Virus record (IMG/VR): IMGVR_UViG_3300028832_000118
Location: 25,581 to 89,580 of that record
Source: a virus
Lineage: Duplodnaviria > Caudoviricetes
Reading direction: 5' to 3' (one strand)
Length of the DNA: 64,000 nucleotides
The stretch's first letter is position 1. Every line of letters starts with the position of its first letter. Of this stretch, positions 178-20,325 are shown piece after piece. A program made the position numbers and the translations under genes. Under the pieces are notes generated by a model that had not been told where the DNA came from, did no database searches, and saw only the letters and a list, made by a program, of their open reading frames with translations.

Positions 178-1116
178 TTATCCTTTACTAACTTTGATGT
201 TCAATTTAACTCCCTGCAACTTCTTGTTTTTCGGTACATATTTTTTCAGCTTCGTGAAAGAGCGTGTTTCGCTATCCCAATCGGCATTAGGCTTTTTGTA
301 ATTGATAGTGCATCTGCAATAAGGATGGGTGGGTGAAATAGTTGGCAACCAATCATCCTTCTTCCTGCCTATATTGTTGCCATTAGCTATTATGTCTTTT
401 AGCTTAAAAACTTTGGGCTCGCTTACTCCTATATCGTGCGGAGGTTCAAGATAAAGCTCCGCACATTTATCACAAGCATTTTCGTAAACGTCAAAATACA
501 CTTCCGCATCTTTGCCGTATTTTTTCAATATGCTTTGTGCCCTGCCTGAATTAAACGCTTCATGCGTAAGATAATAGGCAATACGCAACCAATCCACCTC
601 CCAATCCTTGCTGGTCTTGACAAGTTGAGAGGCTAACTGCCTCGCTCCTTGTCGGTTTTGTATAGCCTGAACTGTTTTTTGCTTTATTACCTGCGCAACC
701 ACTGCCGCCTGCTGCTGATTATTTCGCAATAACGAATTTTGAAGGCTGTTACGCATCCTTGCACCTAAATTAGTTATATCGGTATAGGCACGCTGTTTTA
801 CAGTCTGTAAGGCGAAATTTTCAGCCTCCGTTAATGGGACAAAGCCGCCTGAAGCTAAAAACTTTTTGAACTGCGAATAAGTCATATTTTTTGCCCTCGC
901 ATCGTTAAGGGCTTCAGACAATAAGCCAAAAAGAAAAGCGTGTTCAATCACGCCATTCTTATTCTTAAATTTATTTACATCTATCCCAGCGGCTAAAAGC
1001 AACGCTTTATCCTGCTGCGTCAGGAAATCTGCTCCAAGTTGATTAAAGATAAAGTAAATTTCATAACGCTTCAGGATTGATAAGGTGTCCTGTATTTGTG
1101 CAAAGGTAAAAATCAT
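178..1116 (-). CDS. Phage head morphogenesis protein (MuF / SPP1 gp7-like)
   Basis: C-terminal CxxC...HPYCRC motif typical of MuF domains; lies in the structural region. Confidence 0.75.
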   Translation of the reverse strand: MIFTFAQIQDTLSILKRYEIYFIFNQLGADFLTQQDKALLLAAGIDVNKFKNKNGVIEHAFLFGLLSEALNDARAKNMTYSQFKKFLASGGFVPLTEAENFALQTVKQRAYTDITNLGARMRNSLQNSLLRNNQQQAAVVAQVIKQKTVQAIQNRQGARQLASQLVKTSKDWEVDWLRIAYYLTHEAFNSGRAQSILKKYGKDAEVYFDVYENACDKCAELYLEPPHDIGVSEPKVFKLKDIIANGNNIGRKKDDWLPTISPTHPYCRCTINYKKPNADWDSETRSFTKLKKYVPKNKKLQGVKLNIKVSKG

Positions 1117-1118: not shown

Positions 1119-2534
1119 TTAAAAATAGTTTTCAATACAACTATTCAACTTCTCAAAACCATCATACTTTTTGTATTTATTGATATTCAGACCATCAACT
1201 ATTGTTTCCCAACCATTAGTAGTAATTTTCAAATCGGGATTTTTCTCAACAAATTCAGCGGCTGCCTGCTTAATTGCTTCAATTTTTTTCTTGCTATCTT
1301 CATCATCTAATAATCCACCTTGGTCTGCTTCAAGCGCGGCAATAACATCCTTTTGTGCGTCATCCTTTCTCTTTCTCAATTCTTTTTCAAATTTAAGCTC
1401 CTCCCTTTCTTCATCTTCATCGCCAGTGTATTCTTGTAACACTTCAAAATATTCTTCCAAAGAATTTTTCAAATCATCCAACCCATTACATTTTCCATAA
1501 ATATTAACAAACTCATCATTTTCTAATTCAATCAAATCTTCGGCAACATCAGCATCAATCTTAAAATGAGGATTATTTTTTGCAAAATCTGAAACAGACT
1601 TTCTGAGTTTTTTCAATGCGTTTATTCCCCTTTTTGTTGTGATAAAATCTCCACCATTCCCCTCTCCGTAATTTTTTACAGCAGACATAATATTCAATGA
1701 ATTTTTAGGGACATTTTCTTTTATTTCGTGTATTTTATTCACTGCATCAATGGCAGAAAAATCTCCCCTCCTTTTCAATTCATACGCTGCTGATGCAGTA
1801 TCAATTGAAAAATTGTAAGGACTTTTAACCTCTGACCTTAATTCTTTGGTGCTTTTATCCTTATAATATTCATCAGCATTTTTCTTCACTGATTCAATAA
1901 AACTCTTATCCTTTAATGCTTTCTTTGGTAATGTGCTTGTATCCCAACTCAATGCCATCCTTATGAATTCATCGTCATTCATATTAGCATATTTATTATT
2001 TGAGCCATCACCACCATTATCTCCGCCACCGCTACTACCTTTATTACCATCTTCTTTCAACCAACCTATTTTCTTGGCTGTCTCTTCTGAAATTCTTTTG
2101 CCTACATTAGCAATATTTTTACCATCGTAATAAAAATCCAAAGTTTTTTCACTTCCATTAAAATCAGATTTTATCTCAATCTTATTTATATCATTAAAAC
2201 CATTATCTTTTGCAAATTTCAAAACCTTATTGATTTGTAACTTTTCATCATCACTCATCTTGTCGTAAATACCTGCCTTTGGATTAGCATCGTGATTTTG
2301 TTTGCTTCCACCTTTCTGTTCATCATTCTGCTTCTTTGAACGAGGCTGCCCAGCGGTAGGCTGCTCCTGCTTGCTCCCTCCGTAATGCTGCCCTACACGA
2401 TTTAATTTGCGGTTTTCAGCCGTATCTGCATACACACCGCTACGGGCTTTCTCTATATCAATTCCAAACGATTTTTCTATGTTTTCAATCGTTGCACGTC
2501 TTTGAACATTCAATTCTTCTAAAAAGTTTTCCAT
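1119..2534 (-). CDS. KSF-leader family protein (putative internal head/ejected protein), 471 aa
   Basis: N-terminus ...QRRATIENIEKSFGIDIEKA is shared with the ORFs at 2610, 14436 and 15147; the rest is low-complexity and acidic. Confidence 0.55.
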   Translation of the reverse strand: MENFLEELNVQRRATIENIEKSFGIDIEKARSGVYADTAENRKLNRVGQHYGGSKQEQPTAGQPRSKKQNDEQKGGSKQNHDANPKAGIYDKMSDDEKLQINKVLKFAKDNGFNDINKIEIKSDFNGSEKTLDFYYDGKNIANVGKRISEETAKKIGWLKEDGNKGSSGGGDNGGDGSNNKYANMNDDEFIRMALSWDTSTLPKKALKDKSFIESVKKNADEYYKDKSTKELRSEVKSPYNFSIDTASAAYELKRRGDFSAIDAVNKIHEIKENVPKNSLNIMSAVKNYGEGNGGDFITTKRGINALKKLRKSVSDFAKNNPHFKIDADVAEDLIELENDEFVNIYGKCNGLDDLKNSLEEYFEVLQEYTGDEDEEREELKFEKELRKRKDDAQKDVIAALEADQGGLLDDEDSKKKIEAIKQAAAEFVEKNPDLKITTNGWETIVDGLNINKYKKYDGFEKLNSCIENYF

Positions 2535-2558
2535 AATTATTATATATTTTATGTTGTT

Positions 2559-2570
2559 AATAACTCTGTT
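2559..2570 (-). promoter_or_regulatory. Phage promoter motif copy (AACAGAGTTATT)
   Basis: Intergenic, about 25 bp upstream of the ATG at 2534; GTTATT core recurs in about 13 intergenic sites. Confidence 0.5.
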
Positions 2571-2609
2571 ATATTACAAACGCATTTTTTTCATTAATAT
2601 ATTTTATTT

Positions 2610-3767
2610 TTAATATCCTGCTGTTTCTACGTTAGAATAAAGTACCATCTTAACATCTTCAGACGGATGAACTGTCGCTGCCGTGCCTAAATTCTTGCCT
2701 CCGTCAAAATCCTTTAATCCATTATAAAAATCACGTATATTTCGGTTGTTTTTATTATTCAGTATAAGGTGCAAACCTCCGCTGGGTGTTTCGTATTTAC
2801 AAGCTACTTTAATATTGGCAGCTTTAAGCCTTCTTTCAGTTTCATCCCATACGTTTACTGTCTTACCATTCGTCATCTTCGCCTGAGTATCTCTCGTGGC
2901 GTCTATATCAAGAAGCACTTTGAAACGCTCGTTTTTCCAAGCTGCACCGCTCTTTGGCATACCATACAAAATCGCTTCTGCATTCTTGACTCTTGGGTCA
3001 TTCGGATTTTTGCCCTGAGTAAATTTCGGCAAATAAGCCTCAGTTTGACTCTGACTACGGGTATTGATGCTCATATACGCACGGGCATTATTGTATTGAC
3101 ACAACTTTACAATATGATTTTTCAATGCCTGCAATTCATCGTAAGAATGAACCAAGTAGTGTTGCAGATACTGAGCCCCTGCGTGATAGCTTCCGTCAGC
3201 CCGTGCGCCAGCCTTCCACGCATCGGCATTAGGTTTATCCTTGTTGTCTTTCCATCGTTTGATAATCTGAATAAAGTAAACATCGTCAGGAGAATTAAAC
3301 TCCATATAGTCTTTTACCATATCAAAATTATCAACTACCATATTAGATTGGTAGCAAACACCATCTTTCTCTAACTCGGATGAGGTGATAACATCGCCAT
3401 AAATACTCTGCCCCGTATCTTGATTGTCGTAATGCAGTCGCCAATTTCCATTCGGGGTGCGTTTCAGCATCATCTTATTTTTATCAGTGTAATTTTTATC
3501 AATGCTGGTATAAATGCTATTCAGACAAGCCATCCCGTGCTTACCATTTACACCCTTTCCAACAACTACGTTTTTAGGACTAAAAACGTGCCAATCAAAT
3601 TTTCCAGGGGCATACTCAGTCCAAACATAGGCTTTACCTTCCCAAATAGTAATATCGCCTACCATTCTCGCTTTTTCAATATCAAGCTCATCGTCAACGC
3701 CAAACGACTTCTGCAAGTTTCGTTCAAGCACCCGTCTATGTCTTTTTAATTCTTCCAAACTATCCAT
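2610..3767 (-). CDS. KSF-leader family protein with a C-terminal AEP/primase-polymerase-like domain
   Basis: Leader ...HRRVLERNLQKSFGVDDELDIEKA, then the WTEYAPGKFDW module, then VLLDIDA (hhhDhD) and YETPSGGLHLIL motifs resembling PrimPol motifs I and II. Confidence 0.5.
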   Translation of the reverse strand: MDSLEELKRHRRVLERNLQKSFGVDDELDIEKARMVGDITIWEGKAYVWTEYAPGKFDWHVFSPKNVVVGKGVNGKHGMACLNSIYTSIDKNYTDKNKMMLKRTPNGNWRLHYDNQDTGQSIYGDVITSSELEKDGVCYQSNMVVDNFDMVKDYMEFNSPDDVYFIQIIKRWKDNKDKPNADAWKAGARADGSYHAGAQYLQHYLVHSYDELQALKNHIVKLCQYNNARAYMSINTRSQSQTEAYLPKFTQGKNPNDPRVKNAEAILYGMPKSGAAWKNERFKVLLDIDATRDTQAKMTNGKTVNVWDETERRLKAANIKVACKYETPSGGLHLILNNKNNRNIRDFYNGLKDFDGGKNLGTAATVHPSEDVKMVLYSNVETAGY

Positions 3768-3936
3768 TTTTCTCTATTTCTTTATTTTCGTCAACAACTA
3801 ATTTTGCTATAAACTCAACGACAGTAACAAGAGCTTCAGAGGTATTTTTATTCCACTGCCTTATAAATTCAGCCTCATACCCGTTTACTACCTTATACGG
3901 GGATTTTATGAAATGTTTATCTCTCTTTGCCGCCAT
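3760..3936 (-). CDS. Hypothetical protein, 58 aa (below the ORF-track cutoff)
   Basis: MAAKRDKHFIKSPYKVVNGYEAEFIRQWNKNTSEALVTVVEFIAKLVVDENKEIEKNG; fills the gap between its neighbours exactly. Confidence 0.55.
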   Translation of the reverse strand: MAAKRDKHFIKSPYKVVNGYEAEFIRQWNKNTSEALVTVVEFIAKLVVDENKEIEKNG

Positions 3937-3942
3937 ATCCCG

Positions 3943-4527
3943 TTAAAATTTTACACCAAAATCAATCGTATAGTTAAACTCTTTTTTCAACCTTATACCT
4001 GTTAATCCAAGCATCCACCTATCCTTGATAATAAAACCAAATTCAAGTTTCTGCGTGTTAAATATTAACGATGTACCTGCGAGGGCATAAAATCCCAGCT
4101 TTTTCTTATATTCTACATAATTAGTTTCGGTTATGGTCTTAATGTAAGGGGTAATCTGAGAAGAGGCTGATATGAGCTGATTTTCGCTTACTAATAAATC
4201 AACCTTAAACTCCCCAGCGGTATCGTTAGAAAAATCAAGATTGTATTTACGCTCGCAATAGTAGTCATCCAGCAGCTCCGTAACTTTTATCGTATCTCTT
4301 ATTATCTCAATATAGTTTACAGTGTCTTTTTTTACGATTTCATAGGGTTTCGGCTTATAAATAGTATCTCTTATCGTTTCTCCCTTTATCCAGCGTATTT
4401 CGGTTGTTTTTTTAACTATCTTTGATTCAAAATTCTTTTTGCTAAAATACCATCCTGCTGCAAAGCTCCCGCCAAGCAGCAGAATTGCTAAACCTACATA
4501 CACCCAAACCTTATTACTTTTTTTCAT
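3943..4527 (-). CDS. Membrane-anchored protein, possible Rz/i-spanin-like lysis accessory
   Basis: Single N-terminal TM helix followed by DTI/DTV repeats; adjacent to the holin-like gene. Confidence 0.4.
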   Translation of the reverse strand: MKKSNKVWVYVGLAILLLGGSFAAGWYFSKKNFESKIVKKTTEIRWIKGETIRDTIYKPKPYEIVKKDTVNYIEIIRDTIKVTELLDDYYCERKYNLDFSNDTAGEFKVDLLVSENQLISASSQITPYIKTITETNYVEYKKKLGFYALAGTSLIFNTQKLEFGFIIKDRWMLGLTGIRLKKEFNYTIDFGVKF

Positions 4528-5002
4528 CTGAACCTACAATTTTGCGCTCATATTTAGATAACATAAACTCTAATTTAGTGATGCGTGATTTATACTCCTG
4601 CTCTTTGCGCTCGCTCTCCCGTTCAAATTCCCTATATTGATTTAACAATGCATCATATCTTTGCCGCTCGCTATCCCTCTGAGTTTCATAATCGGTGCGC
4701 ATCTGATTGATTTCAGAGCGAAAATTTTTAACCATTTCAATATTCGTTCTGCGCTCCTCTTCATAATCCTTATCCAATTTATCATATCTCTCCTTCCACC
4801 AATTATCACGGGAGTCAAGCTCACCCTGAAGTGTGTCGTATCTCTGCTTCCAAAAATTATCCCCCTTCAAATCCGCATCGGCTTTGAGGCTTCGGACTTC
4901 TTGGTCAAACTTCTTTTTTGTTAAAAAGTGGACTATAACTCCATAGGCTATACCACCTGAACCAAATACTAATGAGAAAATTTGAAGCCAATTACTTTCC
5001 AT
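4514..5002 (-). CDS. Putative holin-like membrane protein (TM plus coiled coil)
   Basis: N-terminal hydrophobic LQIFSLVFGSGGIAYGVIVHFL followed by a long charged coiled coil. Confidence 0.4.
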   Translation of the reverse strand: MESNWLQIFSLVFGSGGIAYGVIVHFLTKKKFDQEVRSLKADADLKGDNFWKQRYDTLQGELDSRDNWWKERYDKLDKDYEEERRTNIEMVKNFRSEINQMRTDYETQRDSERQRYDALLNQYREFERESERKEQEYKSRITKLEFMLSKYERKIVGSDEKK

Positions 5003-5504
5003 CGCTTTTATTTATTTTATCTATTAAATTAGTAATATCTGTAATTTTCTGTCGGTAATTGTTACGCTCTGTAATTATCTTGTCAGCATCCTTTTGAATA
5101 GAGGTAACATCTTCACCCATTATAACTCTTTCGCAAAAAGCAATTATTTTATCATCGCTCTCTTTTATCTTTTGCTCAATCTCTGCAATTTTATTCTGCA
5201 TCGTGGAGACATTAGTATTATCCTTAATTTCCCAAGTGTTAATAATCTTACCATCCTTTAATTCATATTTAGGTACAAAGGATGTAAATTCTCCATATTG
5301 TGTTTTATCAATAGGAGTGAAATCAAATTCCTTGTATATCTCGGATAATTCATTCAAGGCTTGCTGATAAGCATCTTCAGAAGTAATTTCACTTCCCTCT
5401 TTTGCTTTTTTTACAATTTCGCCTGCTCTATAACTAACTAAATTTTGGAATTTTTCATCCGTAATAATGTCTATTGAATAACTGCTAAAAAATTGCGCTT
5501 TCAT
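4992..5504 (-). CDS. Hypothetical protein, possibly tail-fibre associated
   Basis: 170 aa ORF directly downstream of the 617 aa fibre-like gene. Confidence 0.4.
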   Translation of the reverse strand: MKAQFFSSYSIDIITDEKFQNLVSYRAGEIVKKAKEGSEITSEDAYQQALNELSEIYKEFDFTPIDKTQYGEFTSFVPKYELKDGKIINTWEIKDNTNVSTMQNKIAEIEQKIKESDDKIIAFCERVIMGEDVTSIQKDADKIITERNNYRQKITDITNLIDKINKSDGK

Positions 5505-5508
5505 AATA

Positions 5509-7362
5509 TTATCCTATATTTTTAATGTACCAAACTGTGCCGTTATTGTATCTCTTATTAGTAGCCACTATCATATATAAAACACCATTAGATAATTGAT
5601 ATGTTTGTAAATATGAGGGGGTAGGAGAAACAAAATTATCTACTATATAGCCTCCATTAGATTGAAGGGTTGGAGGTGTGTTTGTTTCGGTAACTATCAA
5701 AAAAATTACCCTGCCGCCCGTGCCTTGTTTATATTGTGATGGCAAATATATATCACCATTACTGATGATATTACTTGGGTCGCTAATATGAACGAATGTT
5801 TCATCGCCTATCATATAAATAGACAAATTAGGCAATACAAAAGTTGTCTTTAATGACAGCATGTCTGCTCTTAAATCTTGGAAGAAAGCATCGTAAATAT
5901 CTATATTATTTGTGTAAATAGTAGCCCATTCTGTTAATGTTTGCGGCTTTTCTAAACGTGCTGAAATTGCAGCTGAGATTTCACCCACAAGTGCCGAATG
6001 TTGTTTACAAAGAGCAGCAACACCTGATTTAATATTCCTGCCATAAGTACCAGTAGCATTATTTGTTAGAGCCCCTTTATATACAAAAGAACTCGCTCGG
6101 TCAAAAATATATGCGCCTTCATTATTAGAATTAATTGTAATAAATCCAGGAAATAATGAAGTTGAATCTTTTATCATAATAGTACCTTCACCCAAACCCA
6201 AAGTAGTAATACCGCTTTTAGAGGTTACAACGCCATTTTCAATATCTCCAATCTGATTCAACTTACCCTGCAATTTTCCAAAGGCTAAATCAAAGTTGTC
6301 CAAAGCAGCTAAATTGTTTATATGCTGCGTATAGTCTTCAGGATGCCAACCAGCGGATAAACAACCTATTGAACTAAAATGCTGCATAATGTATTGCAAC
6401 TTTTGCAGAGCCGTTTGAATAGTATCGTTATTATTTATCCATCCGTGATTATAATTATTATCCCAAGTTGGGTCAATGTCTATTCCCTTTGCGGTCTTAA
6501 AATTATTTATCCACCTTTGCGTTTTATTGACTATGGTCTGAAGCGTATCGTTTGAAATAATGTCGGATGGAGCAATATTAGTGTTTACGTTAGGCACTCG
6601 CTTGGAGTAGATATTAACGGGTGATACAGCGGTGTTTATATAAGAGGTTAATGTTGTAATGGAATTAGATACGGATGAAGCTATATTAGTTATTTGGCTT
6701 GAAAGGTTAGTTATATCCTGAATATAAGTGTCGTAAGCAACAACGCCACCTGCTATATCGTATATGTTGCTAATAGCGGTTGTTAAGTCTAAAAAGAAGC
6801 CTCCATCACTACCAAACGCCAGCGCATTATTATTATCACTGGAAAGTAGGTCGGCAAATTTTATCTTGATAAACCTCAATAAACCGCCAACCTTATCCTC
6901 TGCAAGCAGATATTGGTAAGAAGACAGGGGGGATGGATTATAAGGCTGGAAATCAAAATTTAGCGTGCCTGCATTAAATATGCCGTGTAAGTTATCAATA
7001 GTCAGATTATTAGTTGTTACAATATATTGCTTGCTATTGCCCAAATCATCTAACACAATATTGCCCGTTATATCGGTATATTGCACGATGGTAGCGGTTA
7101 GGGCAATCGCCATCAGGTTTCCCAAATCGGTAATCTTAAACCACTGCCCAATCGTCAGACTATTCTGAGCTAAAATAACCAAGTTTGCATACGTAATGGA
7201 TATTACGATATTTTGGTCAAGCACTACCCACTGACTTGAACCGAAATCGTAAACCTTATGCAAGTTTACACCTGGCGTATTATCAAACCAAATTAAATTA
7301 GTGTTAGTTGGGGCGGTGCTGCCTATATGCAAGCCCGCCACCTGACCTAAATTCAAAGCCAT
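5509..7362 (-). CDS. Putative tail fibre / tail structural protein
   Basis: 617 aa, rich in N/T/I/G; IGxTAPxNTxLIWFD N-terminal motif; repeated DTIQxALxKLQ segments. Confidence 0.5.
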   Translation of the reverse strand: MALNLGQVAGLHIGSTAPTNTNLIWFDNTPGVNLHKVYDFGSSQWVVLDQNIVISITYANLVILAQNSLTIGQWFKITDLGNLMAIALTATIVQYTDITGNIVLDDLGNSKQYIVTTNNLTIDNLHGIFNAGTLNFDFQPYNPSPLSSYQYLLAEDKVGGLLRFIKIKFADLLSSDNNNALAFGSDGGFFLDLTTAISNIYDIAGGVVAYDTYIQDITNLSSQITNIASSVSNSITTLTSYINTAVSPVNIYSKRVPNVNTNIAPSDIISNDTLQTIVNKTQRWINNFKTAKGIDIDPTWDNNYNHGWINNNDTIQTALQKLQYIMQHFSSIGCLSAGWHPEDYTQHINNLAALDNFDLAFGKLQGKLNQIGDIENGVVTSKSGITTLGLGEGTIMIKDSTSLFPGFITINSNNEGAYIFDRASSFVYKGALTNNATGTYGRNIKSGVAALCKQHSALVGEISAAISARLEKPQTLTEWATIYTNNIDIYDAFFQDLRADMLSLKTTFVLPNLSIYMIGDETFVHISDPSNIISNGDIYLPSQYKQGTGGRVIFLIVTETNTPPTLQSNGGYIVDNFVSPTPSYLQTYQLSNGVLYMIVATNKRYNNGTVWYIKNIG

Positions 7363-7374
7363 TTTTATAAGGTT

Positions 7375-7632
7375 TTAACGTGAATAATTATAACTCGTTC
7401 TTTGGCTCCAAGCAAATTTGAATTCCATAGAGCCTTCAGCGTACTCACGTTTGGTGACATTCCCCGTAACGCTTTCACGCATAATTCTCCATCCTTCATC
7501 CCCCTCGCCTACTCCAAGAGGAGCCCAACCATAATATTTAACAGATGCAGAAACGACATCTTCAAAAGGTGCTGGCAGATATTCTTCAAAAGTTTTTACC
7601 AGCGGTGCTGCAATTTCATTCATTGTATTCAT
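7375..7632 (-). CDS. Small virion-associated protein, 85 aa
   Basis: YxGWA...WRIxR...AW...R...Y pattern that I recall from small phage structural proteins; overlaps the portal stop codon. Confidence 0.45.
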   Translation of the reverse strand: MNTMNEIAAPLVKTFEEYLPAPFEDVVSASVKYYGWAPLGVGEGDEGWRIMRESVTGNVTKREYAEGSMEFKFAWSQRTSYNYSR

Positions 7633-9368
7633 TTTACATTATTTTTTAGAAAGTTATCAAATGCTTTTACTAATTCATCATCCTCTGCTTTTTCTTCATC
7701 CTCTCCATCCTCCTCATATTCACCTAAATCGTCAAAGGGGTTGTAGTCGCCTCCATCTTCGGTTTCCTCTCCCCCTTCTCCAACAAAGGGATTATCATAA
7801 CCACCTTCATCTTCGCCTCCCCCCATCATACCGCCTCCCTGCTGCTGGGCAAAAGCTGCCTGACTCTTTGCCTGCATATAGGTTGGGTTACTCGGTATAT
7901 CACCAAACTCCAGCGGCTCTAAATCGTATTTTTCACGCAATTCGTTTATGGTCATAAATGATTGACCCTTCTTTATATCTATATCAAGTTCTTCACTAAT
8001 AGTTAATCCGTTAAGCCCAACAAAACAAAATTCAAATTCGGGGTTTATCTGCTCTACAATATAGCGGTTAATTTTCTTTTGTATAAATTTCAATAACGGA
8101 TACAATCCTTTATCCTTACTATGTTTCAGTCGCTGCTCCTGACTGCTCTCAAACATTCCCGTGCTGCCTGCTGAGCGTGCAATATCCCATCCTATCTCGG
8201 TTGGGTCAATAGCGTAAATTGAGCAAGCTAATTTTATCAGATACTCTAACCAAGCGTTGTACTCCATATCTCGGTTAGATTTTTGCATATCAATCCAATC
8301 AACGTCAGCTTCTACTACGGGTGTTTTCCAAGCCTGCATAACTCCCGTAATCATTGACTGCCACTGCTGACGGAATTGCTGTAACGCTGATTCATTATTC
8401 GTACCCTTGACTCTCAAAAATCCCTTCGGGGCTGAACCTTGTGAAAAGAAGCGTCTATTGTATTCATCGCTCCACAACATACTCGTTACTACGTTTATCA
8501 GCTCTTCCAGCTCTGAGCATCCGTACCCGTTAGAATGAATATTAGAGCTTGGGTTTCTGATACCAAAGCAAAGCTCCCAGGGATAAAAGTCATTAACCTT
8601 TACACTCTGATAAACCTGCACATAGGAGGGATAATAACCATTTATCTTTTTGCCGTATTCAGCCCTATCATCCCAAACCATAGAGCCGTAACGCTTAAAA
8701 AATTCATTCTTGTAATCCTCGCTGAAATATGAGTCTGCAATTCGGAAAGTAGAAGCATCCACCGCCTTAAATGAATCAATCTCACCCCTTCGGTTTCGGA
8801 TAATCTCAAAGGTCATCTGGTCGTAAATAAGTGAATCATTAGTTATCTTTCGGATAAAGGTATCAAAATCATCATTATTCCAATTGCTCGTATTTCCGCC
8901 ATTCATCAAAAAATTAGTTATAGCATCAGCAGTTTTTTCATCCTCCTTCGTCATTTTCTGCTCTTTCCCCATCTTGGGTTTCTTTCGGATAATAAAACCT
9001 GTTGAATATCTATTTTCCTGCGGCTCGGCAAAGTCAGCAATTTGATTTTTTCGTGTTTTAATAATAGCGTTAATCACGGGTACTTTGCTCATTTTCAACA
9101 GCGTGGTATAGGTGAGTGAATACGGCTTATCCTTATAACCCAAATTAGCATTAAATTGTAATGGGTCAATTAAATAAGCCTTCGTTGGTACGCTATTATT
9201 CTTATCCATTTCCTGAAGCATCTTACCAGCCCTAATAATATCATCGGGGTTGCTGCTCTTCATCGCTTTCTCAATAGTCAGCATCCGCTTCACGTCCAGC
9301 TCTGCCTGCGTTTTGGATATATTATCTAATTCCTTTGAATACGACATCTTAATATTTTTTTTACTCAT
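7629..9368 (-). CDS. Portal protein
   Basis: 579 aa; motifs DxxTFR, YGxSxLE, NxxFFxQGSAPKGFL, YxIDPxEIG; acidic C-terminal tail. Confidence 0.9.
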   Translation of the reverse strand: MSKKNIKMSYSKELDNISKTQAELDVKRMLTIEKAMKSSNPDDIIRAGKMLQEMDKNNSVPTKAYLIDPLQFNANLGYKDKPYSLTYTTLLKMSKVPVINAIIKTRKNQIADFAEPQENRYSTGFIIRKKPKMGKEQKMTKEDEKTADAITNFLMNGGNTSNWNNDDFDTFIRKITNDSLIYDQMTFEIIRNRRGEIDSFKAVDASTFRIADSYFSEDYKNEFFKRYGSMVWDDRAEYGKKINGYYPSYVQVYQSVKVNDFYPWELCFGIRNPSSNIHSNGYGCSELEELINVVTSMLWSDEYNRRFFSQGSAPKGFLRVKGTNNESALQQFRQQWQSMITGVMQAWKTPVVEADVDWIDMQKSNRDMEYNAWLEYLIKLACSIYAIDPTEIGWDIARSAGSTGMFESSQEQRLKHSKDKGLYPLLKFIQKKINRYIVEQINPEFEFCFVGLNGLTISEELDIDIKKGQSFMTINELREKYDLEPLEFGDIPSNPTYMQAKSQAAFAQQQGGGMMGGGEDEGGYDNPFVGEGGEETEDGGDYNPFDDLGEYEEDGEDEEKAEDDELVKAFDNFLKNNVK

Positions 9369-9378
9369 TATATAACTG

Positions 9379-9406
9379 AAAAAGCCGATTAACGACTAAT
9401 CGGCTT
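9379..9406 (-). terminator. Rho-independent terminator after dam
   Basis: 9-bp stem AAGCCGATT/AATCGGCTT followed by a T run on the minus strand. Confidence 0.75.
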
Positions 9407-9432
9407 GTATGATTGTAAAAAGTATGAGTTGA

Positions 9433-10269
9433 TTATCTTTTAGGGATAAAGAGTTTTTCAATTGTCAGATTTGAGTTATTTTTTGCAAAACTACATTCTT
9501 TATAAATCTTTTTAACACATACAAAATCATTTGGCATATCATACTCAGAAATAAAAATATTATTCTGATTTTTAGCCCACTTATAAAATTTTTCATAATC
9601 AAAATCCATACCATAATCAAAAGTTCCTTTATACGGAATATCGCAATATATAACACTATTTTCAGGAATTGGCACTAAATCATATTGAGTTGAATAGAAT
9701 TTAATATTTTTATTTTTCAATTCAATGAGATTGTTGAGCCTTCGCAATTTTTCAATGTGCAACATTCTCTTTCCGCTAACACTTCTTATTATTTTCTCCC
9801 TATCTTGATAGTTTACAACCTTATTTAAGGTTTTATTCAGTTTCAAAGATAAACGGATATCAATTTTATTTAGAAGCCTAAAATCATTAAAAAAAAGCAC
9901 ATAATGCAAAGCCCTTTCTATTACTTCATAACCTTCTCCATACATATAGTCTTTCCCATTACTACCAAAACTCCATAAATATCTTACAAATGGGTCATAA
10001 GTCTTCAATTTATGAAATACGTTCCTTGATATATATGCTCTTTTATTTTGATACCTGCCATTAATGGCGTTCTTCAAAAACGATATTGACATTAAATTCA
10101 AATCGTTCACAATTACCCTATTGTATTTGCCACTTAAAACTGCATAATGCGCTACGCTCCCCCCCCCCGTGAATAAATCTACAAAACAATCGGCTTTCGG
10201 AAAAACATCAAATAAATCTTTCAAAATTTTAGTTTTTCCACCAACCCATTCTATTCCATAACTTTTCAT
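9433..10269 (-). CDS. dam: Dam-family (D12 class) N6-adenine DNA methyltransferase
   Basis: WVGGK, FVDLFTGGGSV (motif I), VIYCDIPY (motif IV, DPPY variant). Confidence 0.85.
   Translation of the reverse strand: MKSYGIEWVGGKTKILKDLFDVFPKADCFVDLFTGGGSVAHYAVLSGKYNRVIVNDLNLMSISFLKNAINGRYQNKRAYISRNVFHKLKTYDPFVRYLWSFGSNGKDYMYGEGYEVIERALHYVLFFNDFRLLNKIDIRLSLKLNKTLNKVVNYQDREKIIRSVSGKRMLHIEKLRRLNNLIELKNKNIKFYSTQYDLVPIPENSVIYCDIPYKGTFDYGMDFDYEKFYKWAKNQNNIFISEYDMPNDFVCVKKIYKECSFAKNNSNLTIEKLFIPKR
10159..10168 (-). repeat. G10 homopolymer inside dam motif I (currently in frame)
   Basis: Plus strand gct-CCCCCCCCCC-gt; reads ACG GGG GGG GGG AGC (TGGGS). Confidence 0.9.
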
Positions 10270-10272
10270 ATT

Positions 10273-10590
10273 CTAATCCTCCACCTTCAAAATTTTGCGT
10301 TCAATCTTCTTTTGCATCGTTCTATCAAATACAACCATTTTTTCGTCTATTCTGCTAACTAAAATAATCGGCTCGCATAAATATTCATAAAGGGATATTT
10401 CATTAGTGAATGACGTTATTTCACCCCCCTCCGCTATCTCTTCAAATAACTTATCAAAATTCTCTATGCTAATACCATCCTCCAGCTCTTTTCGACTAAC
10501 GTAACAAAGGCGGTTGACGGATGTATCAAGCTCGGTCGCTATTATTTGGATGTCAAAATCTAATTCCTGATAATCTTTCAAAAATTTCAT
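10273..10590 (-). CDS. Hypothetical protein
   Basis: 105 aa ORF translationally coupled to its neighbours. Confidence 0.6.
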   Translation of the reverse strand: MKFLKDYQELDFDIQIIATELDTSVNRLCYVSRKELEDGISIENFDKLFEEIAEGGEITSFTNEISLYEYLCEPIILVSRIDEKMVVFDRTMQKKIERKILKVED

Positions 10591-11672
10591 AACGATAATA
10601 CTTTTGTTTTTGGTACAAATTTACTTCTTTGCTTTCCCTCCCCTATCTGCATTTTCCAATACTTTTGAAATTCACAAAGCCACATTTCAATCTGATGTAA
10701 CGTAATATTGCAAACCCCCGTTGTATAATATTCACCATAAACCTTATTCCAATATAAATATGGAAAATTCTCACCCCTTCTATCCGCAATTTCCTTCAGC
10801 TCTTTTTTAGCTAAATCTCTCAACCAATAAATTGCCTGCTTCTGCTCTTTTATGGTATTCAAGCTCGGATAAATCAATCTAATGCCTATGCTGGCGCCTG
10901 GCCCAACGTTGGTATAGTCGTTTTGGTCAAAACGCATAAAGGTACGTTTGGTATATCTTGGTATATAAGTCAAATCCTGATAAAGCTCGTGCGAAATAAA
11001 AGACGCTACAGTTGGTATAGTGTTAAGCTCTTCAATAAGCTCTTCAGCCGTACTGCAATTAGTAATAACATCGTAAATTTCGGGAATTTTATCGTGAAGG
11101 GCTGGCAGCGCAATACGTGTATATACATAATCCCGTTTCTCGTGGGGAGCGCACGCTGAATTGATTAAATAAGCGTTTGTAAATGGGTTTTGACCGCTCG
11201 CTCGCACCCCGTTTATAAATTTTTCAAATTCCAGCTCGTCATACTCATCATAATCGGGTATTCCATTTTTCCATCGGTAGGAGGGAATAAACTCAGTGTT
11301 TTGATTGAATAAATCCCGTTTAATATTCTTTGGATGGAATGTAAAGGTTTCGGGATTATTAAACAATCTATAAACCATCATCTTCCAAATAAGATTAAGG
11401 TCATCCAACCCGTCATCCAAAATAATAGTGCTAATTAAAAATTGACTGCTCCTATCTAATTCCCTATACACGTTGGTGAATTTAGAATTACGCAAAATTG
11501 GGTCATCCGTCCAAGGTGCTGGCACTTTATCTAAAAAGCGTTTTTTCCAAATCATCTGCCGCTCGTACATTTTTTCAAAAAACAGTTTCAAGTGCGGCTC
11601 GTAAACTTCTAAATTTTCATCAGGCAGTTTATCTGCCCAGCTGTAACAATTCCAATTCATAACTTTTACCAA
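10587..11672 (-). CDS. aGPT-Pplase (alpha-glutamyl/putrescinyl-thymine pyrophosphorylase) clade-1-like DNA base-modification enzyme
   Basis: WTDDPILRNSKFTNVYRELDR, FNNPET, FTNAY, GPGAxxGI, IEMWLCEFxKY motifs recalled from this glycosylase-fold family. Confidence 0.75.
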   Translation of the reverse strand: MVKVMNWNCYSWADKLPDENLEVYEPHLKLFFEKMYERQMIWKKRFLDKVPAPWTDDPILRNSKFTNVYRELDRSSQFLISTIILDDGLDDLNLIWKMMVYRLFNNPETFTFHPKNIKRDLFNQNTEFIPSYRWKNGIPDYDEYDELEFEKFINGVRASGQNPFTNAYLINSACAPHEKRDYVYTRIALPALHDKIPEIYDVITNCSTAEELIEELNTIPTVASFISHELYQDLTYIPRYTKRTFMRFDQNDYTNVGPGASIGIRLIYPSLNTIKEQKQAIYWLRDLAKKELKEIADRRGENFPYLYWNKVYGEYYTTGVCNITLHQIEMWLCEFQKYWKMQIGEGKQRSKFVPKTKVLSL

Positions 11673-12310
11673 TTCATTTTATTAACAAATTCATTTATAC
11701 CCTTACGATGAATTTCCACAATGGCATTCGTTCCCTCCTTGGATAATAAAAACCTTACCTCATCTATACAATCCTGAAACATATTCTCGGTTAGTACGGC
11801 TGGGCAGTTTGGAATTTGGCACATCGCAAATTTCGCCTCATAGTCATCATCGCCATCACTGCGGTCTTTTCTCGTTTTTTGCCCCAGTGGGGTTAGCACC
11901 TCTACAGCGGCATCGTATAAGCACTGGGCCAGCTTATCAGAATTGTTTTGCCCAGGTGTAGTCCATACTGACCACCCGTATGCCTTTTTCCACTCTTTAC
12001 CGCTCCCAGCAGCATTATTATGTATAGATATGGATAAAGTATGTTTACCAACCTTCTTTGCCTCTTTAACTGCTGCATTTATCCTGCGTCCACGCTCTGC
12101 TAATGTTACGTCATTCAATTCAGGTGTAATAATCTTTACTTCATACCCCTCATCCTTCAATACATCTGCAAGCATTCTAACGATTTCACGACAATACATA
12201 TATTCACGGAAAGGTAGGGTTGGTGGTACCTTATTAGCTGACCACGGACTACGCTTTCCAGCTGTATCCTCTCCGTGCCCATTATCAAGACAAATTACTA
12301 CATTTTTCAT
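11666..12310 (-). CDS. N-acetylmuramoyl-L-alanine amidase (Amidase_3), endolysin
   Basis: LDNGHG, E, SIHNNA and VLTEN zinc-amidase motifs. Confidence 0.9.
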   Translation of the reverse strand: MKNVVICLDNGHGEDTAGKRSPWSANKVPPTLPFREYMYCREIVRMLADVLKDEGYEVKIITPELNDVTLAERGRRINAAVKEAKKVGKHTLSISIHNNAAGSGKEWKKAYGWSVWTTPGQNNSDKLAQCLYDAAVEVLTPLGQKTRKDRSDGDDDYEAKFAMCQIPNCPAVLTENMFQDCIDEVRFLLSKEGTNAIVEIHRKGINEFVNKMNW

Positions 12311-12312
12311 AA

Positions 12313-12612
12313 TTATAATTTTTTCAAGTTTATCCTTATTTTCAACTCCCTACGTGCTTCCACATTCTTTTTAGCTACTAATTTCAAAAGCGTAATTTTA
12401 TCTAATTTTTTCAAGCTACGCTTACTCGCCAAAAAGAGTTCAGCCATAGGCTCGTATATATTAACTCTGTTCGCCAAGCCACTATCCCTATCGGAATAAT
12501 AGCAATGAAGCATGGGACAATATTCACTGCCTATTATCGCTAAAACCTTAAACAACTGCCTTCCAAATAGCTTCGGGCATCTTATTACATCACCCTCCTT
12601 AAAAAACCTCAT
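12313..12612 (-). CDS. Hypothetical protein
   Basis: 99 aa ORF in an operon-like arrangement. Confidence 0.6.
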   Translation of the reverse strand: MRFFKEGDVIRCPKLFGRQLFKVLAIIGSEYCPMLHCYYSDRDSGLANRVNIYEPMAELFLASKRSLKKLDKITLLKLVAKKNVEARRELKIRINLKKL

Positions 12613-12620
12613 AATGCGTT

Positions 12621-13436
12621 CTATCTATTATAAATTAGTTCATTATCAAAGGTTTGATTATCAAAGATAAAATGCGCCTTACGTGCTAATACGTTAATAG
12701 GCATCTGCTTCAGCTTCTCATCGTCAAATCCGCAAAATTTACTCTCCCTTACTTTCATCAACTCCCTATTTACGTCAATGACGTGATAGACGGGATAGTG
12801 AGAATATCTGATTGTTATACTTACGTTAGCAGCTGGGTCATTTACATCCTTCATATCAATATACGTCAAAATGTTCTCGTTAAACACTATCGTATTTTTA
12901 TCAACTTCATAATCATCCCCTTCTTTTAACTCTTTTAACGCTGTATTATCGCTAACGAAAAGAGCCATGCGACTAATTTTCAAGGGTTCATAAATCGGAT
13001 ATGCTATCAACTGTCCCTGCCAAATAACGGGGTTCAAAACCTCGCTATACCACTCTTCCAGCTGCAACAAAATAATCCTATCCATAAACCCAAGTTTATC
13101 CGCTCCCTTGGTAGTAATAGAGGCGGTGCCACGATTTACTTCACTCCAATCCTGATAATGCTTCTTGCTATCCATATGCTGCGCCACTACCCTCGTTTCA
13201 GTTCTATCGGTAAACAACCAGCCTCTTCCAAGACAATTCTTACAAGTGCTCATAGCCTGCCCAGTCGCCTTATCAGTACAAGGGCATCGCATCGCCTTAT
13301 CAATATACGCATCATAACCATGCGCCTGAATTAACTCTTCAAAATCCCTAACTCTCCAACCTATTCTTGGGTCAACCAAGGTAGCTGGAGTTTGATGAAT
13401 AACGGGTGGATTAGTAACTATGCTTTTGCCTTCCAT
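12621..13436 (-). CDS. Putative neck / head-tail connector protein
   Basis: CPC...CxxCxGxGW motif; position among structural genes. Confidence 0.5.
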   Translation of the reverse strand: MEGKSIVTNPPVIHQTPATLVDPRIGWRVRDFEELIQAHGYDAYIDKAMRCPCTDKATGQAMSTCKNCLGRGWLFTDRTETRVVAQHMDSKKHYQDWSEVNRGTASITTKGADKLGFMDRIILLQLEEWYSEVLNPVIWQGQLIAYPIYEPLKISRMALFVSDNTALKELKEGDDYEVDKNTIVFNENILTYIDMKDVNDPAANVSITIRYSHYPVYHVIDVNRELMKVRESKFCGFDDEKLKQMPINVLARKAHFIFDNQTFDNELIYNR

Positions 13437-13437
13437 T

Positions 13438-14238
13438 TTACAAAATTTTATCTAAATACTCACTAACTAAATTTTCAACAATAGTATCAACATCAACCTG
13501 CTCATACGCTTTTTCGGCTAAATGGCGGGCTTCTATGCCTTTATGTATCCAGCTCAATGGGTCTGAATTTTTGCCTGCTCTCCTAAACGTACCATAGGTA
13601 TTTTGTTGGACGCTGCCATAGGTAGCAGTCTTTTTAATCATTCCCTCAAAGATAGAATTTTTGTGCCTATATTCTGCATATAAGAGCTGATTATTTTGAT
13701 AGATAGCCTCCCTTGAACGGGGTACATCGTGAGGGCTTGGAATTTCTGATTTAAGCAATGGAGAGCCTGCAAACTTACCCTTTATTACATTATAAACACT
13801 CATCGGCATTTCAGCCGAAAAACCAGCTTGTCCCACTATTCCTGGCGTACCTATGCGGAATGGGATAGTAAGATACCAATCTCCACCTGCTGAAATCATA
13901 TTCCCCTTACGGCTGTATTTCGGTATAGTGTATTGAACCGCTTGGGATTTTTTGAACCCTTCTTTGAGGTCAAACGGGGCTGCACCCTGCTCAACCATAT
14001 TTGGTACAACCCCCGTAAGTACAATATTTTTTTCTAATTTCCCCTTATCTACGATATTCAGATTTTGCAAGTATTCTGGCAAAGTGGATTTTAATTCCTT
14101 CTTTGCCATCGCTTCCCATAACGAATAAATTTCACCAGCAACCGCATTTATACAACTTTCGGTCAATACGTCTATTTCGTTTGCCGTAAGTCCAAATTGT
14201 TGCTGCAATCTCGTTAAATCTATCGTTATTGGAGACAT
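13438..14238 (-). CDS. Putative neck / tail-completion protein
   Basis: MVEQGAxPFDLKxG, YLTIPFR and SWIHKG motifs seen in myovirus neck proteins; context. Confidence 0.5.
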   Translation of the reverse strand: MSPITIDLTRLQQQFGLTANEIDVLTESCINAVAGEIYSLWEAMAKKELKSTLPEYLQNLNIVDKGKLEKNIVLTGVVPNMVEQGAAPFDLKEGFKKSQAVQYTIPKYSRKGNMISAGGDWYLTIPFRIGTPGIVGQAGFSAEMPMSVYNVIKGKFAGSPLLKSEIPSPHDVPRSREAIYQNNQLLYAEYRHKNSIFEGMIKKTATYGSVQQNTYGTFRRAGKNSDPLSWIHKGIEARHLAEKAYEQVDVDTIVENLVSEYLDKIL

Positions 14239-14241
14239 AAT

Positions 14242-14429
14242 TTACAAATCTTTATATTCATATTTTCCAATTCTAACTTTTTGCCCCAAAAAATTAGTAG
14301 TATATTCTTCAAACTCTTCAATTTTATCACCCGTAATTAAATAATTACTATTTTTTGCTAATCGGTAGAAAAAGATTTAATTATGTTCTCCTGAACTGAT
14401 AATCTATGTAATTGTATTAAATTTTTCAT
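14242..14429 (-). pseudogene. Frameshifted fifth member of the KSF-leader family
   Basis: MKNLIQLHRLSVQENIIKSFSTD* stops at TAG (14358-14360); adding one T (GAT TTA GCA AAA) gives a 62-aa ORF ending at 14242. Confidence 0.65.
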
Positions 14430-14435
14430 AAGATT

Positions 14436-15113
14436 TTATTTTGCATAATCCTCTTTTATCATATCAAAATCTACATCAAAACCATAATTCCAATTGGGCG
14501 TACTCTTTTTTATTTTGAAAAACGTATCTTTATCAAGTTTTCCATCTTTAATCAATTTACCAATTTTTTTATAAAATTTAACATCAGCCGCTAATGCCGC
14601 ATCTTGGTCAAAATTATCGTCTTTATCATACGCTTTATCATAATCTTTTTCCAATTGAGAAAAAGCAGCTTTCAAGTCATTAACAACCTTATTATCGTCA
14701 TCGCCATTATCCTTTCTCTCGTTACCCTCCTTCGGCACAACCATCTTTCCGCCTCCCTTTATATCATAATTGCCATCCTTCTCGTTCCATTTCTCATCGG
14801 GGTCAAAACCTAATTCCTCAAAAAAATCCTCCTTAATTTTCTTACCATTTTTATCGTAAATCTCAACCCAAGCATCCTCATCCTGCAATTGCATACCACG
14901 AGGCACTTTTACAGAAGCGGTTTTTTCTTTCCCCTCTTTTTTCTTAATTACTCTCCAATCAAATTTTCCTGGTGCATATTCAGTCCAAACCTTTTTACCA
15001 TCGCTGCTAATATCTCCAGCGACACGGGCTTTTTCAATATCTGCTCCAAAACTCTTTTTCAAACACTCCGCAACCATTCTGCGGTGGCTACTAATAATGT
15101 CGTTAATTTCCAT
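14436..15113 (-). CDS. KSF-leader family protein with WTEYAPGKFDW module, 225 aa
   Basis: ...SHRRMVAECLKKSFGADIEKARVAGD...GKKVWTEYAPGKFDWRVIKKKEG. Confidence 0.6.
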   Translation of the reverse strand: MEINDIISSHRRMVAECLKKSFGADIEKARVAGDISSDGKKVWTEYAPGKFDWRVIKKKEGKEKTASVKVPRGMQLQDEDAWVEIYDKNGKKIKEDFFEELGFDPDEKWNEKDGNYDIKGGGKMVVPKEGNERKDNGDDDNKVVNDLKAAFSQLEKDYDKAYDKDDNFDQDAALAADVKFYKKIGKLIKDGKLDKDTFFKIKKSTPNWNYGFDVDFDMIKEDYAK

Positions 15114-15146
15114 AATGTATAAAGTTTTATTATTGTTTTATTTTTA

Positions 15147-15812
15147 TTATATGTACCATCCTACAAGTCTTGCATTTTTTTCACTTATAAAATGCTTGCT
15201 TATATTACTAATTACCCTTCCATCAAGTCTTTTTAATCTCCAACTTCCATTATCATTTTTTTCTAACCGAACATCTTCGGGATTAACTCCACTCTTACCA
15301 ACTTTATCTAAAACATTTTTAATAACAGAATTTACCTCCCTCTTTGCTTCTGAACTCAATTTTTCATATTTTTTATCAAAATCAGATTTAGTCTTACCAT
15401 CTACGTCAGTATATTTATTAAAATAAATCATATCACCTACTACCTTACCAATTTTTTTATCGCTTACAGAAAGTTTAACATCATCAAATTCCGTAATTTT
15501 AACACTTGCGCCAATTATCTTAACCAAATCATCTTCATTATCGGGATAAGGCATAAAATATTTGAACTGCTTATAACTTGAAGACGTATTTTTCTCAACT
15601 CCATACTTTTCATCAATATTTTCTTTTTCTCCCTCTTTTTTCTTAATTACTCTCCAATCAAATTTATTCGGAGCGTATTCGGTATAAACTAATGTTTTCC
15701 CGTTTACCACCTTTGTATCGCCTGCTACGTGGGCTTTCTCTATATCGCCTTCAAACGATTTTTGAATATTATTTACAACAGCTTTTCTATGTTCTAAAAT
15801 AAGATTTTCCAT
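15147..15812 (-). CDS. KSF-leader family protein with YTEYAPNKFDW module, 221 aa
   Basis: ...EHRKAVVNNIQKSFEGDIEKAHVAGD...GKTLVYTEYAPNKFDWRVIKKKEG; shares about 35 identical bp with the 14436 gene. Confidence 0.6.
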   Translation of the reverse strand: MENLILEHRKAVVNNIQKSFEGDIEKAHVAGDTKVVNGKTLVYTEYAPNKFDWRVIKKKEGEKENIDEKYGVEKNTSSSYKQFKYFMPYPDNEDDLVKIIGASVKITEFDDVKLSVSDKKIGKVVGDMIYFNKYTDVDGKTKSDFDKKYEKLSSEAKREVNSVIKNVLDKVGKSGVNPEDVRLEKNDNGSWRLKRLDGRVISNISKHFISEKNARLVGWYI

Positions 15813-18790: not shown

Positions 18791-19337
18791 CCTTAACCCT
18801 AATTTGAACTGTTTTCAAAAACTCTATAAACTGCAACAAGTAGGGTTCAACCACCTTATAAATTGCAGAGCTTTTATCATCATCCTGATATGGGAATTTG
18901 AAGCCGCCCATAAATTTTGCGACTGCCGCCCGTATAGCGTCAACCCTCCTACAATTTTTTACATCCTCCATAGCCTCCGCAAAGGCACGCCCAGCGGTCA
19001 GGAATATATCAAAAACATAAACCTTCACACAAAGCTCCAAATCATCCCTCCTTACGTTTTTTGCCATAGCGTTAAACACGTTGGTATAAATATACATAAC
19101 CTTATCATAAGTCGTATCTACAAGCTCACAAATAGCGTCTTCAGTCGTTTTATCGTTATCCCTGCTTACACTACGCCAAAAACTTGAAAACTCTGCATTT
19201 ACATCACCCCAATAGTAACGCTTAAAAGCGTCATTTTTCATAGTATAGATATTGACCCAATAATCGTTAGCCAATCGGATAAAGAACATGCTGATGAGCC
19301 TTATGCGTGCCTGACTATTTATGATATTCGCTTCCAT
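18780..19337 (-). CDS. Hypothetical protein
   Basis: 185 aa ORF, coupled to its neighbours. Confidence 0.55.
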   Translation of the reverse strand: MEANIINSQARIRLISMFFIRLANDYWVNIYTMKNDAFKRYYWGDVNAEFSSFWRSVSRDNDKTTEDAICELVDTTYDKVMYIYTNVFNAMAKNVRRDDLELCVKVYVFDIFLTAGRAFAEAMEDVKNCRRVDAIRAAVAKFMGGFKFPYQDDDKSSAIYKVVEPYLLQFIEFLKTVQIRVKDAR

Positions 19338-19339
19338 AA

Positions 19340-20002: not shown

Positions 20003-20041
20003 AATTCTCTAAATCTGCATTATTAGTAGTAGTAACGATGT

Positions 20042-20278
20042 CTATTTTTTATACATCTTATCCAAATGCTTCCAACCAAGCACCTTATATTTCCAACCAC
20101 CGCCTCTCTTAACGTAAATTTTTACATAGTTTTTCAAATCCCATTTTTGCTCATCAGCAGGCGCAACCTTCGCCAGCTCCCCCCGTTTCAAATCCATATA
20201 TTTAACCATAAATTCAGGTAAACTCTTGGAAATGTTCAAAAACTTTGGTAAACTCTCTTTTGTTAAAATCGCTTTCAT
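20042..20278 (-). CDS. Hypothetical protein (start re-called at MKAILTK)
   Basis: The ORF-track start at 20338 lies inside the HU terminator; the ATG at 20278 follows the promoter motif. Confidence 0.55.
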   Translation of the reverse strand: MKAILTKESLPKFLNISKSLPEFMVKYMDLKRGELAKVAPADEQKWDLKNYVKIYVKRGGGWKYKVLGWKHLDKMYKK

Positions 20279-20308
20279 ATCTCGTTTTTTAATTATTATT
20301 CTACAATA

Positions 20309-20323: not shown

Positions 20324-20325
20324 AT

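Follow-up and report, generated by a model that had tools for sequence, protein, structure and literature searches.

A shared N-terminal leader, possibly cut by the prohead protease, on unrelated head-module proteins of an uncultured gut phage

Why should several proteins with different bodies, encoded among the head genes of a single phage, begin with the same short peptide? This question is raised by IMG/VR record IMGVR_UViG_3300028832_000118, of which we analysed a stretch of 64,000 nucleotides (the window; positions 25581-89580 of a single 89,580-bp contig). The original prediction described a leader common to five open reading frames (ORFs) and read it as a modular tag that loads variable proteins into the head. 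Our analysis leans, at slightly better than even chances, to the reading that the leader is a removable N-terminal propeptide, which designates the members of a variable protein set as cargo of the head interior and is cut by the prohead protease after a lysine.

The leader was confirmed at the start of four minus-strand ORFs, here called LP1 to LP4 (Table 1). A hidden Markov model (HMM) of the leader, run against the six-frame translation of the whole contig as the original prediction had proposed, gave only five matches (E 3e-19 to 7e-13; the next match had E 0.09), all of them inside the head gene block. Over all six frames of the window, the peptide D-I-E-K-A appears four times, each time in one of these leaders. 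Conserved leader residues are encoded by differing synonymous codons (TCG, AGT and TCT for serine, for example), indicating that selection acts on the peptide. The fifth copy, described earlier as a frameshifted ORF, does carry the leader, but it is a 23-codon copy closed by a TAG codon, with a short leftover frame behind it; it is a decayed leader gene and not a simple frameshift. LP3 and LP4 have an identical 35-nt stretch at the module/body junction, and the leaders of LP1 and LP4 show 83% DNA identity over 40 nt; these short repeats suggest recombination between copies. Leaders are 26-32 residues long in LP1 to LP4 and up to about 68 in the wider family.

A profile of 30 positions, built from 13 leaders, matched 178 protein clusters at E<=1e-3 among 1.84 billion representatives; the figures per match given here and below refer to the 150 clusters listed. 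Nearly all matches begin at residue 1, and about 146 of the 150 within the first six residues; the exceptions are a fused protein that holds a further copy internally, a start that was probably mis-called in one case, and partial duplications. The proteins range from 33 to 628 residues, and the leader is followed by a variant of module 2 in 81, by module 1 in 33, and by neither, or by too short a sequence, in 36. The 112 bodies of at least 80 residues fell into 42 unrelated components when any local match was counted, and into 56 when half-length coverage was required. One body carries a papain-fold glutamine-deamidase toxin domain (PF15644, Gln_amidase; E 1.9e-15). Leader genes lay within the terL-portal-MuF-protease-capsid block in every context examined, and relatives carry diverged leaders on genes beside MuF. 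The leader family is real and widespread, and it is close to certain that the leader is modular. The earlier modular reading stands as to the strictly N-terminal position, the interchangeable unrelated bodies, the location in the head module and the likely protease sites; it needs correcting in that module 2 is not specific to cargo. A literature search found no published description of the leader. In 74 related IMG/VR loci, where the synteny after terL differs, a strict HMM of the five leaders gave no match up to 10 kb from terL. In several leader proteins (P0029, P0032 and P0081) we also observed a recurrent C-terminal domain that ends in Y-K-H-P-K-Q and belongs to no known family.

As had been predicted, one of two short modules follows each leader: module 1 (..NRKLNRVGQ..) in LP1 and module 2 (..WTEYAPGKFDW) in LP2 to LP4. 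An HMM of module 1 matched the genome once (E 1.4e-15), and a search of the ESM Atlas with module 2 returned no named relative. The bodies behind the modules, held to be unrelated, are so by blastp except for a third module of about 70 residues common to LP1 and LP4 (E 5e-6), where it stands at the end of the LP4 body; by eye it is also present in LP2. LP1 has only three full-length homologues, and its remaining matches cover only the leader and module 1. No family was assigned to LP1, LP3 or LP4 in Pfam, PHROGs or PDB sequence searches, and LP2, which has no Pfam family, matched only PHROG 14949, whose function is unannotated. In a structural comparison, residues 146-385 of the LP2 model gave RepB' primase (3h20_A) as the best long match (Z 7.4, root-mean-square deviation 3.6, 137 residues), and D-I-D and S-G-G-L-H are invariant in the body of 30 homologues; Foldseek found nothing in the PDB at E<=0.001. 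The C-terminal domain of LP2 may have a fold like that of archaeo-eukaryotic primases (AEP), whose hallmarks are an acidic motif I and a motif II of the type sGxH.

Every leader ends in a hydrophobic residue, Glu, Lys and then Ala, Gly or Ser. In the AlphaFold2 model of LP2 (predicted local distance difference test, pLDDT, 78), the leader helix is followed by a linker with D-I-E-K-A at pLDDT below 50 (Table 1), and module 2 forms a three-stranded beta meander at residues 39-61. Among 104 predicted proteins, [ILVF]EKA was observed 10 times against 3.1+-1.7 in shuffles. Nine of the ten sites fall in head proteins, namely in the four leaders, at residues 30-34 of the portal protein, at residues 7 and 557 of the large head protein p631, and at residues 240 and 249 in the linker of a protease-scaffold protein. 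The latter matched Pfam S78 with 32.8 bits (cut-off 21; E 9.5e-8), and in the head block its gene lies immediately upstream of that for the capsid protein (PHROG 752, E 3e-87).

In the protease-scaffold protein, the motif hydrophobic-x-K-[AGS] occurs 12 times against 2.3 expected (z 7), making this protein the top outlier of the 104, and nine of the 12 sites are spread across the linker and the scaffold part; such a spread would be expected of a scaffold that is chopped into small peptides. The motif is likewise enriched in the protease-scaffolds of five relatives (13-16 observed, 2.3-3.4 expected) and in L119, a more distant phage whose scaffold is a protein of its own (10 observed, 1.1 expected), with z between 5.9 and 8.9 in these six. 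Eight altered motifs (P1 changed to E, to D or to R/Q/N; P1' charged or hydrophobic; P3 polar; register shifted) were at or below expectation in scaffolds, which speaks for a specific linear motif and against helical periodicity, an explanation of the enrichment that we rejected. Both leader sites, I-E-K|S-F and D-I-E-K|A, match this motif, as do the capsid-protein sequence L-N-K-A (residues 33-36) and the junctions ahead of module 2 in p631 and in a second large head protein, p822. We put the chance that the leader junction is a prohead-protease site at about two in three. Of the two leader sites first proposed, K|SF is secondary: K-S-F is replaced by Q-Q-F in one leader type, and the universal site is hydrophobic-E-K|A/G/S at the leader end; nor is K|SF present at the capsid N-terminus, which has the L-N-K-A just mentioned instead. 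Sites suspected in the portal tail are reduced to one, L-V-K-A-F, which fits the motif, although one clade has Ala in place of its Lys.

The leader could alternatively be an uncleaved adaptor helix that attaches proteins to the portal, MuF or capsid surface, or that makes them oligomerise, with EKA serving a structural role. The 30-residue N-terminal packaging signal of P1 DarB, for which cleavage is not reported (PMC9024508), is a precedent, and MuF is flanked by leader genes in most genomes (the MuF homologue is so placed in L096, L097, L106, L114, L115 and L118). However, the site lies within a predicted flexible linker, a second EK[AGS] site is present in the acidic spacer of 48 of the 150 listed leaders, and the motif is specifically enriched in scaffolds and recurs between the domains of a polyprotein. 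We therefore consider an uncleaved adaptor unlikely.

The recurrence between domains was seen in P0290 (L119:10001-12409), an 802-residue head-module protein with a NUDIX domain, an unannotated middle domain and a weak GNAT-like match, in which a cassette of EKA plus module 1 occurs twice, between domains. These cassettes suggest that the same cut may also split polyproteins. Further protease substrates may be found among small, acidic proteins of the head module (L118:15063-15416 and L111:12875-14062) that contain repeats of E-[LF]-[ER]-K-A and, after these, a conserved motif, P-D-G-S-[FY]-P-I ... D-L-K-[ND]-A-I. The N-terminus of the L119 scaffold resembles a leader by eye (I-L-K-G-F ... I-E-K-G), but the leader HMM gives it no score and we rejected it as a leader.

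Several points weigh against a cleaved, head-directing leader. Since EKA is itself part of the search profile, the logo drawn for that site is in part circular. The homologous scaffolds are non-independent samples, with L119 a distant case. The T-I-E-K-A of the portal is not retained in distant relatives, and conservation of L-N-K-A in the capsid protein says little because the whole capsid N-terminus is invariant. In tblastn searches of cultured phages, LP3 had no match, its leader included, and LP2 was matched only in part, by Lak megaphages and Cellulophaga phi17:2, over its C-terminal domain and not over the leader. Finally, module 2 also stands behind quite different N-terminal pieces in p631 and p822, so that the module, and not the helix, could matter for location. 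It is found outside any leader or EKA context as well, in two tandem copies in a basic early-type protein of the same genome (Table 1), and is therefore an independent domain.

These last observations lead to the strongest of the alternatives, in which the protease removes the leader but the helix is a disposable pro-piece, and module 1 or 2 at the new N-terminus retains or places the protein by binding to packaged, probably hypermodified DNA or to the inner shell. In p631, p822 and their homologues, module 2 comes right after hydrophobic-x-K-A yet behind unrelated N-terminal pieces. A third kind of N-terminal piece is the small ORF that precedes MuF: in L097 and L085, homologues of the 58-residue ORF of the present phage are fused, with V-E-K-A at the junction, to module 2 plus the body of a cargo. 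In L114, the leader proteins and the p631 homologue have the same variant of module 2. The basic protein that contains module 2 is rich in Lys, Ala and Arg, which hints that the module may bind DNA; its relatives have 290-460 residues, and some begin, by eye, with a winged-helix-like region. On the other side, the helix with its I-L-K-S-F-like end is conserved in 178 clusters and homogenised within genomes, which would be unneeded in a mere spacer, and in 36 of the 150 listed leader proteins no module can be recognised. We judge this alternative improbable on the whole and retain the propeptide as head-targeting signal.

Both large proteins are encoded at genome positions 18885-23269 (L002:5885-10269). 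We noted a Walker-A P-loop and weak nSTAND/AAA matches in p631, and in p822 motifs that by eye look kinase-like and ADP-ribosyltransferase-like; searches of Pfam and of PDB sequences gave p822 no match.

Comparison across lineages provided a further line of evidence. LP2 has 344 homologues, at least 120 of them at 61-82% identity, and the N-termini of orthologues at 62-82% identity include at least two leader types besides the one with Q-Q-F. The helix with H-R-R and K-S-F defines type A; in type B the first half differs and the end reads I-L-K-S/A. All types finish with hydrophobic-E-K-[AGS] immediately before the module. In the type-B genome L115, which belongs to a group with contigs of up to about 120 kb, a second and unrelated cargo carries the same type-B leader. 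Over six genomes, leader similarity was 1.83 within and 0.86 between genomes (BLOSUM62 units per residue), a difference reached in 10 of 5000 permutations. The leader type follows the genome and not the cargo.

Within-genome similarity could be due in part to duplication, and the DNA repeats that link the leaders of LP1, LP3 and LP4 point the same way. This leaves room for late or host-takeover proteins that are not part of the virion and whose common N-terminus, a regulatory or degradation tag, derives from gene duplication. Yet the location of the genes in the head block in every context examined, the retention of leaders despite unrelated bodies, and a site motif in common with the scaffold all argue against it, and we regard a non-virion role as quite improbable.

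The neighbourhood of MuF suggested one more candidate. Directly after MuF lie a radical SAM/SPASM gene and a gene similar to those of TET-associated glycosyltransferases (genome 23274-25735; L002:10274-12735), and Trp, Lys and other aromatic residues abound in module 2, so the leader might belong to a ribosomally synthesized and post-translationally modified peptide (RiPP) system in which the radical SAM enzyme cross-links module 2. The loci near MuF were read, and their genes identified by eye from the N-termini. Leader proteins are encoded in L097, L114 and L115 with no radical SAM gene next to MuF, and in L111 the stretch that apparently has a radical SAM gene contains no gene with a leader. 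As "precursors", the leader proteins would measure 200-600 residues and include enzyme bodies, and the radical SAM gene is grouped with deacetylase and glycosyltransferase genes. We rejected this explanation because leader proteins and the radical SAM gene do not co-occur in the loci read; its probability is very small. Among the relatives, a gene that by eye resembles a PIG-L-type deacetylase was seen near MuF, and the radical SAM gene is apparently present in some and absent in others.

Taken together, we propose the following mechanism for the leader as a cleavable targeting propeptide. The leader would combine an amphipathic helix, some 20 residues long, with a spacer that is flexible and acidic and ends in hydrophobic-Glu-Lys, followed by Ala, Gly or Ser. 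Tagged proteins would be synthesized late, along with the head genes, and would enter the procapsid together with the protease-scaffold. There, the HK97-type (Pfam S78) prohead protease would cut after the leader Lys; it would also cut many similar sites in the scaffold, yielding small peptides, probably the capsid protein at L-N-K|A, and p631 and p822 at their N-terminal junctions. The mature cargo, with module 1 or module 2 as its new N-terminus, would be retained in the head and would presumably leave it together with the DNA. We give head targeting followed by ejection about an even chance. The most general form of the proposal is that in abundant, uncultured gut phages of Bacteroidota a protease-gated code (swappable leader, hydrophobic-E-K|A and short docking module) defines the cargo loaded into an HK97-type capsid, and that the same cassette also splits polyproteins inside the head; it is more tentative, and its probability falls somewhat short of even.

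The window belongs to a contig whose last 126 bases repeat bases 2-127 and which is therefore a circularly closed assembly of about 89.45 kb. The GC content is about 37%, and the minus strand carries all long ORFs. The large terminase is 54-84% identical to the terminases of 74 IMG/VR contigs, many of 86-101 kb, and 35% identical to its counterpart in Bacteroides phages of about 179 kb. In size and likely host range, the present phage resembles the proposed "Flandersviridae" (PMC8008677). In the order of transcription, the head block begins with terL, LP4, LP3, the leader remnant, two structural genes, and lysis and DNA-modification genes. It continues with the portal gene, a gene for a 617-residue protein, genes for membrane proteins, the 58-residue ORF, LP2, LP1 and MuF. 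Beyond the window edge come, in order, the radical SAM/SPASM and glycosyltransferase genes, p631, p822, p124, the protease-scaffold fusion and the capsid protein gene. The original prediction placed the leader genes next to MuF and between terL and the neck genes; the MuF and terL neighbours are as described. LP3 is followed by two genes, at most candidate neck genes, of which one matches a PHROG "virion structural protein" and the other is unannotated. MuF lies directly downstream of LP1 and is a separate gene with no leader-protein or toxin fusion.

Table 1. Coordinates of the leader proteins and of other features (window positions, unless genome positions are stated)
Feature	Position	Strand	Description
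MuF-like minor head protein	178-1116	-	312 aa; Pfam Phage_Mu_F E 0.0016 (below cut-off), PHROG 115
LP1	1119-2534	-	471 aa; leader, module 1 and unannotated body including the shared third module
LP1 leader	2448-2534	-	aa 1-29; predicted cuts after K21 (before S-F) and K29 (before A)
Module 1 of LP1	2379-2447	-	aa 30-52; core N-R-K-L-x-R-V-G-Q
LP2	2610-3767	-	385 aa; leader, module 2, third module and possible AEP-primase-like C-terminal domain
LP2 leader	3672-3767	-	aa 1-32; helix 3-21, low-confidence linker 23-34 with D-I-E-K-A (AlphaFold2)
Module 2 of LP2	3582-3671	-	aa 33-62; modelled three-stranded beta meander
58-aa ORF	3760-3936	-	homologue of the small ORF preceding MuF in relatives
Portal protein	7629-9368	-	possible, weakly conserved sites: T-I-E-K-A at aa 30-34, L-V-K-A-F near the C-terminus
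Leader remnant	14361-14429	-	23 codons, then TAG; leader HMM E 7e-13
LP3	14436-15113	-	225 aa; leader aa 1-28 (15030-15113), module 2 aa 29-56 (14946-15029), small body
LP4	15147-15812	-	221 aa; leader aa 1-26 (15735-15812), module 2 aa 27-58 (15639-15734), body
Large terminase	15851-17563	-	directly upstream of LP4
Basic protein	26693-27310	-	205 aa; two tandem copies of module 2; no leader, no EKA junction
Protease-scaffold protein	genome 17085-18503 (L002:4085-5503)	-	Pfam S78 and PHROG 1028; protease domain about aa 1-170; just outside the window

Two observations in the head modules stand apart from the leader. A 271-residue protein with a Cys-rich motif (window 12621-13436, minus strand) matches a 292-residue chain in PDB 8q01 (E 4e-6), which is labelled "Capsid protein"; five related entries also match. 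In L119, the portal and MuF products (L119:3757-9017) carry Intein_splicing Pfam matches, that of MuF being weak.

Hardly anything is known of the proteins that gut phages inject with their DNA, because no cultures exist and the genes of the head modules are unannotated. With a leader that can be recognised in sequence and has a defined cut site, the repertoire could be catalogued by computer: if our reading is correct, the leader profile lists the injected arsenal directly from metagenomes, including a toxin-like deamidase, a primase-like enzyme, NUDIX proteins and kinase/ADP-ribosyltransferase-like proteins. It would also yield a first rule for where prohead proteases of this S78 branch cut, and the leader could serve as a tag to load chosen proteins into Bacteroides phage capsids.

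The closest known parallel is the capsid-targeting sequence of T4, likewise a short N-terminal peptide on unrelated head-internal proteins (IPI-III and Alt). In T4, the peptide is removed by the prohead protease at a terminal site of a kind that is also cut in the scaffold and the capsid protein, and the cargo is injected; with its predicted sites, the present phage would follow the same logic. The T4 protease, gp21, cuts by the rule Leu/Ile-x-Glu and belongs to a different family from the Pfam S78 (HK97 gp4 type) enzyme found here. A T4-like specificity was not seen in the present phage group, as hydrophobic-x-E-[AGS] is not enriched in the scaffolds. The present system further differs from that of T4 in a predicted P1 Lys with a small P1' residue, a longer leader, a second conserved module, and leader types that swap between lineages.

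Other systems share single features with the leader proteins. Head and ejection proteins of the jumbo phages SPN3US and phiKZ have N-terminal propeptides, some of 20-24 residues, with several motif copies each, and the SPN3US protease gp245 recognises A-x-E, cleaves at multiple sites and processes itself (PMC10052503); in contrast to the present case, Glu is at P1, and no leader family common to many cargos is described there. The 30 N-terminal residues of P1 DarB suffice to bring a reporter into the capsid, but this is one protein with no shared family, and cleavage of the signal is not reported (PMC9024508). Polyvalent proteins and MuF-linked effectors bear effector domains in head modules beside MuF or the portal, are thought to be injected, and include embedded zincin-like metallopeptidases proposed as processing enzymes; a polyvalent protein combines two to 15 effector domains in a single polypeptide (Iyer et al. 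2017, PMC5512222). Domains of the toxin, NUDIX and acetyltransferase types are found here too, and P0290 is a multidomain example with EKA and module 1, whereas most of the present cargos have a gene of their own that begins with the common leader, in place of one giant polypeptide. No zincin-like metallopeptidase was seen in the leader proteins or P0290, LP1 to LP4 having no Pfam matches and the bodies being largely unannotated. In MuF polymorphic toxins, the toxin domain is fused to the MuF C-terminus, while the leader proteins are separate neighbours of a 312-residue MuF. Encapsulins load cargo into an HK97-fold shell by a short terminal peptide, usually C-terminal and uncleaved, with no protease or DNA involved; the likeness is an analogy only, in that diverse cargo is addressed to the interior of an HK97 fold.

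The capsid protein offers a final comparison. It is a homologue of that of the Twort-like phage phi812 (5lii, E 1.5e-25), whose N-terminus has V-V-K-S-F four alignment columns downstream of the present L-N-K-A. The closest capsid protein, that of PDB entry 9vel, retains L-N-K-A. Capsid proteins of HK97 and of SPO1/Twort-like phages (A511, phi812) are cut at Lys|Ser. The T4-like logic is already known; what is different here is the S78 protease, the Lys at P1, the second module, the single leader family over dozens of cargos, and the exchanged leader types. The strategy of targeting followed by trimming, in the style of T4, thus probably arose also with a different protease family and a different site.

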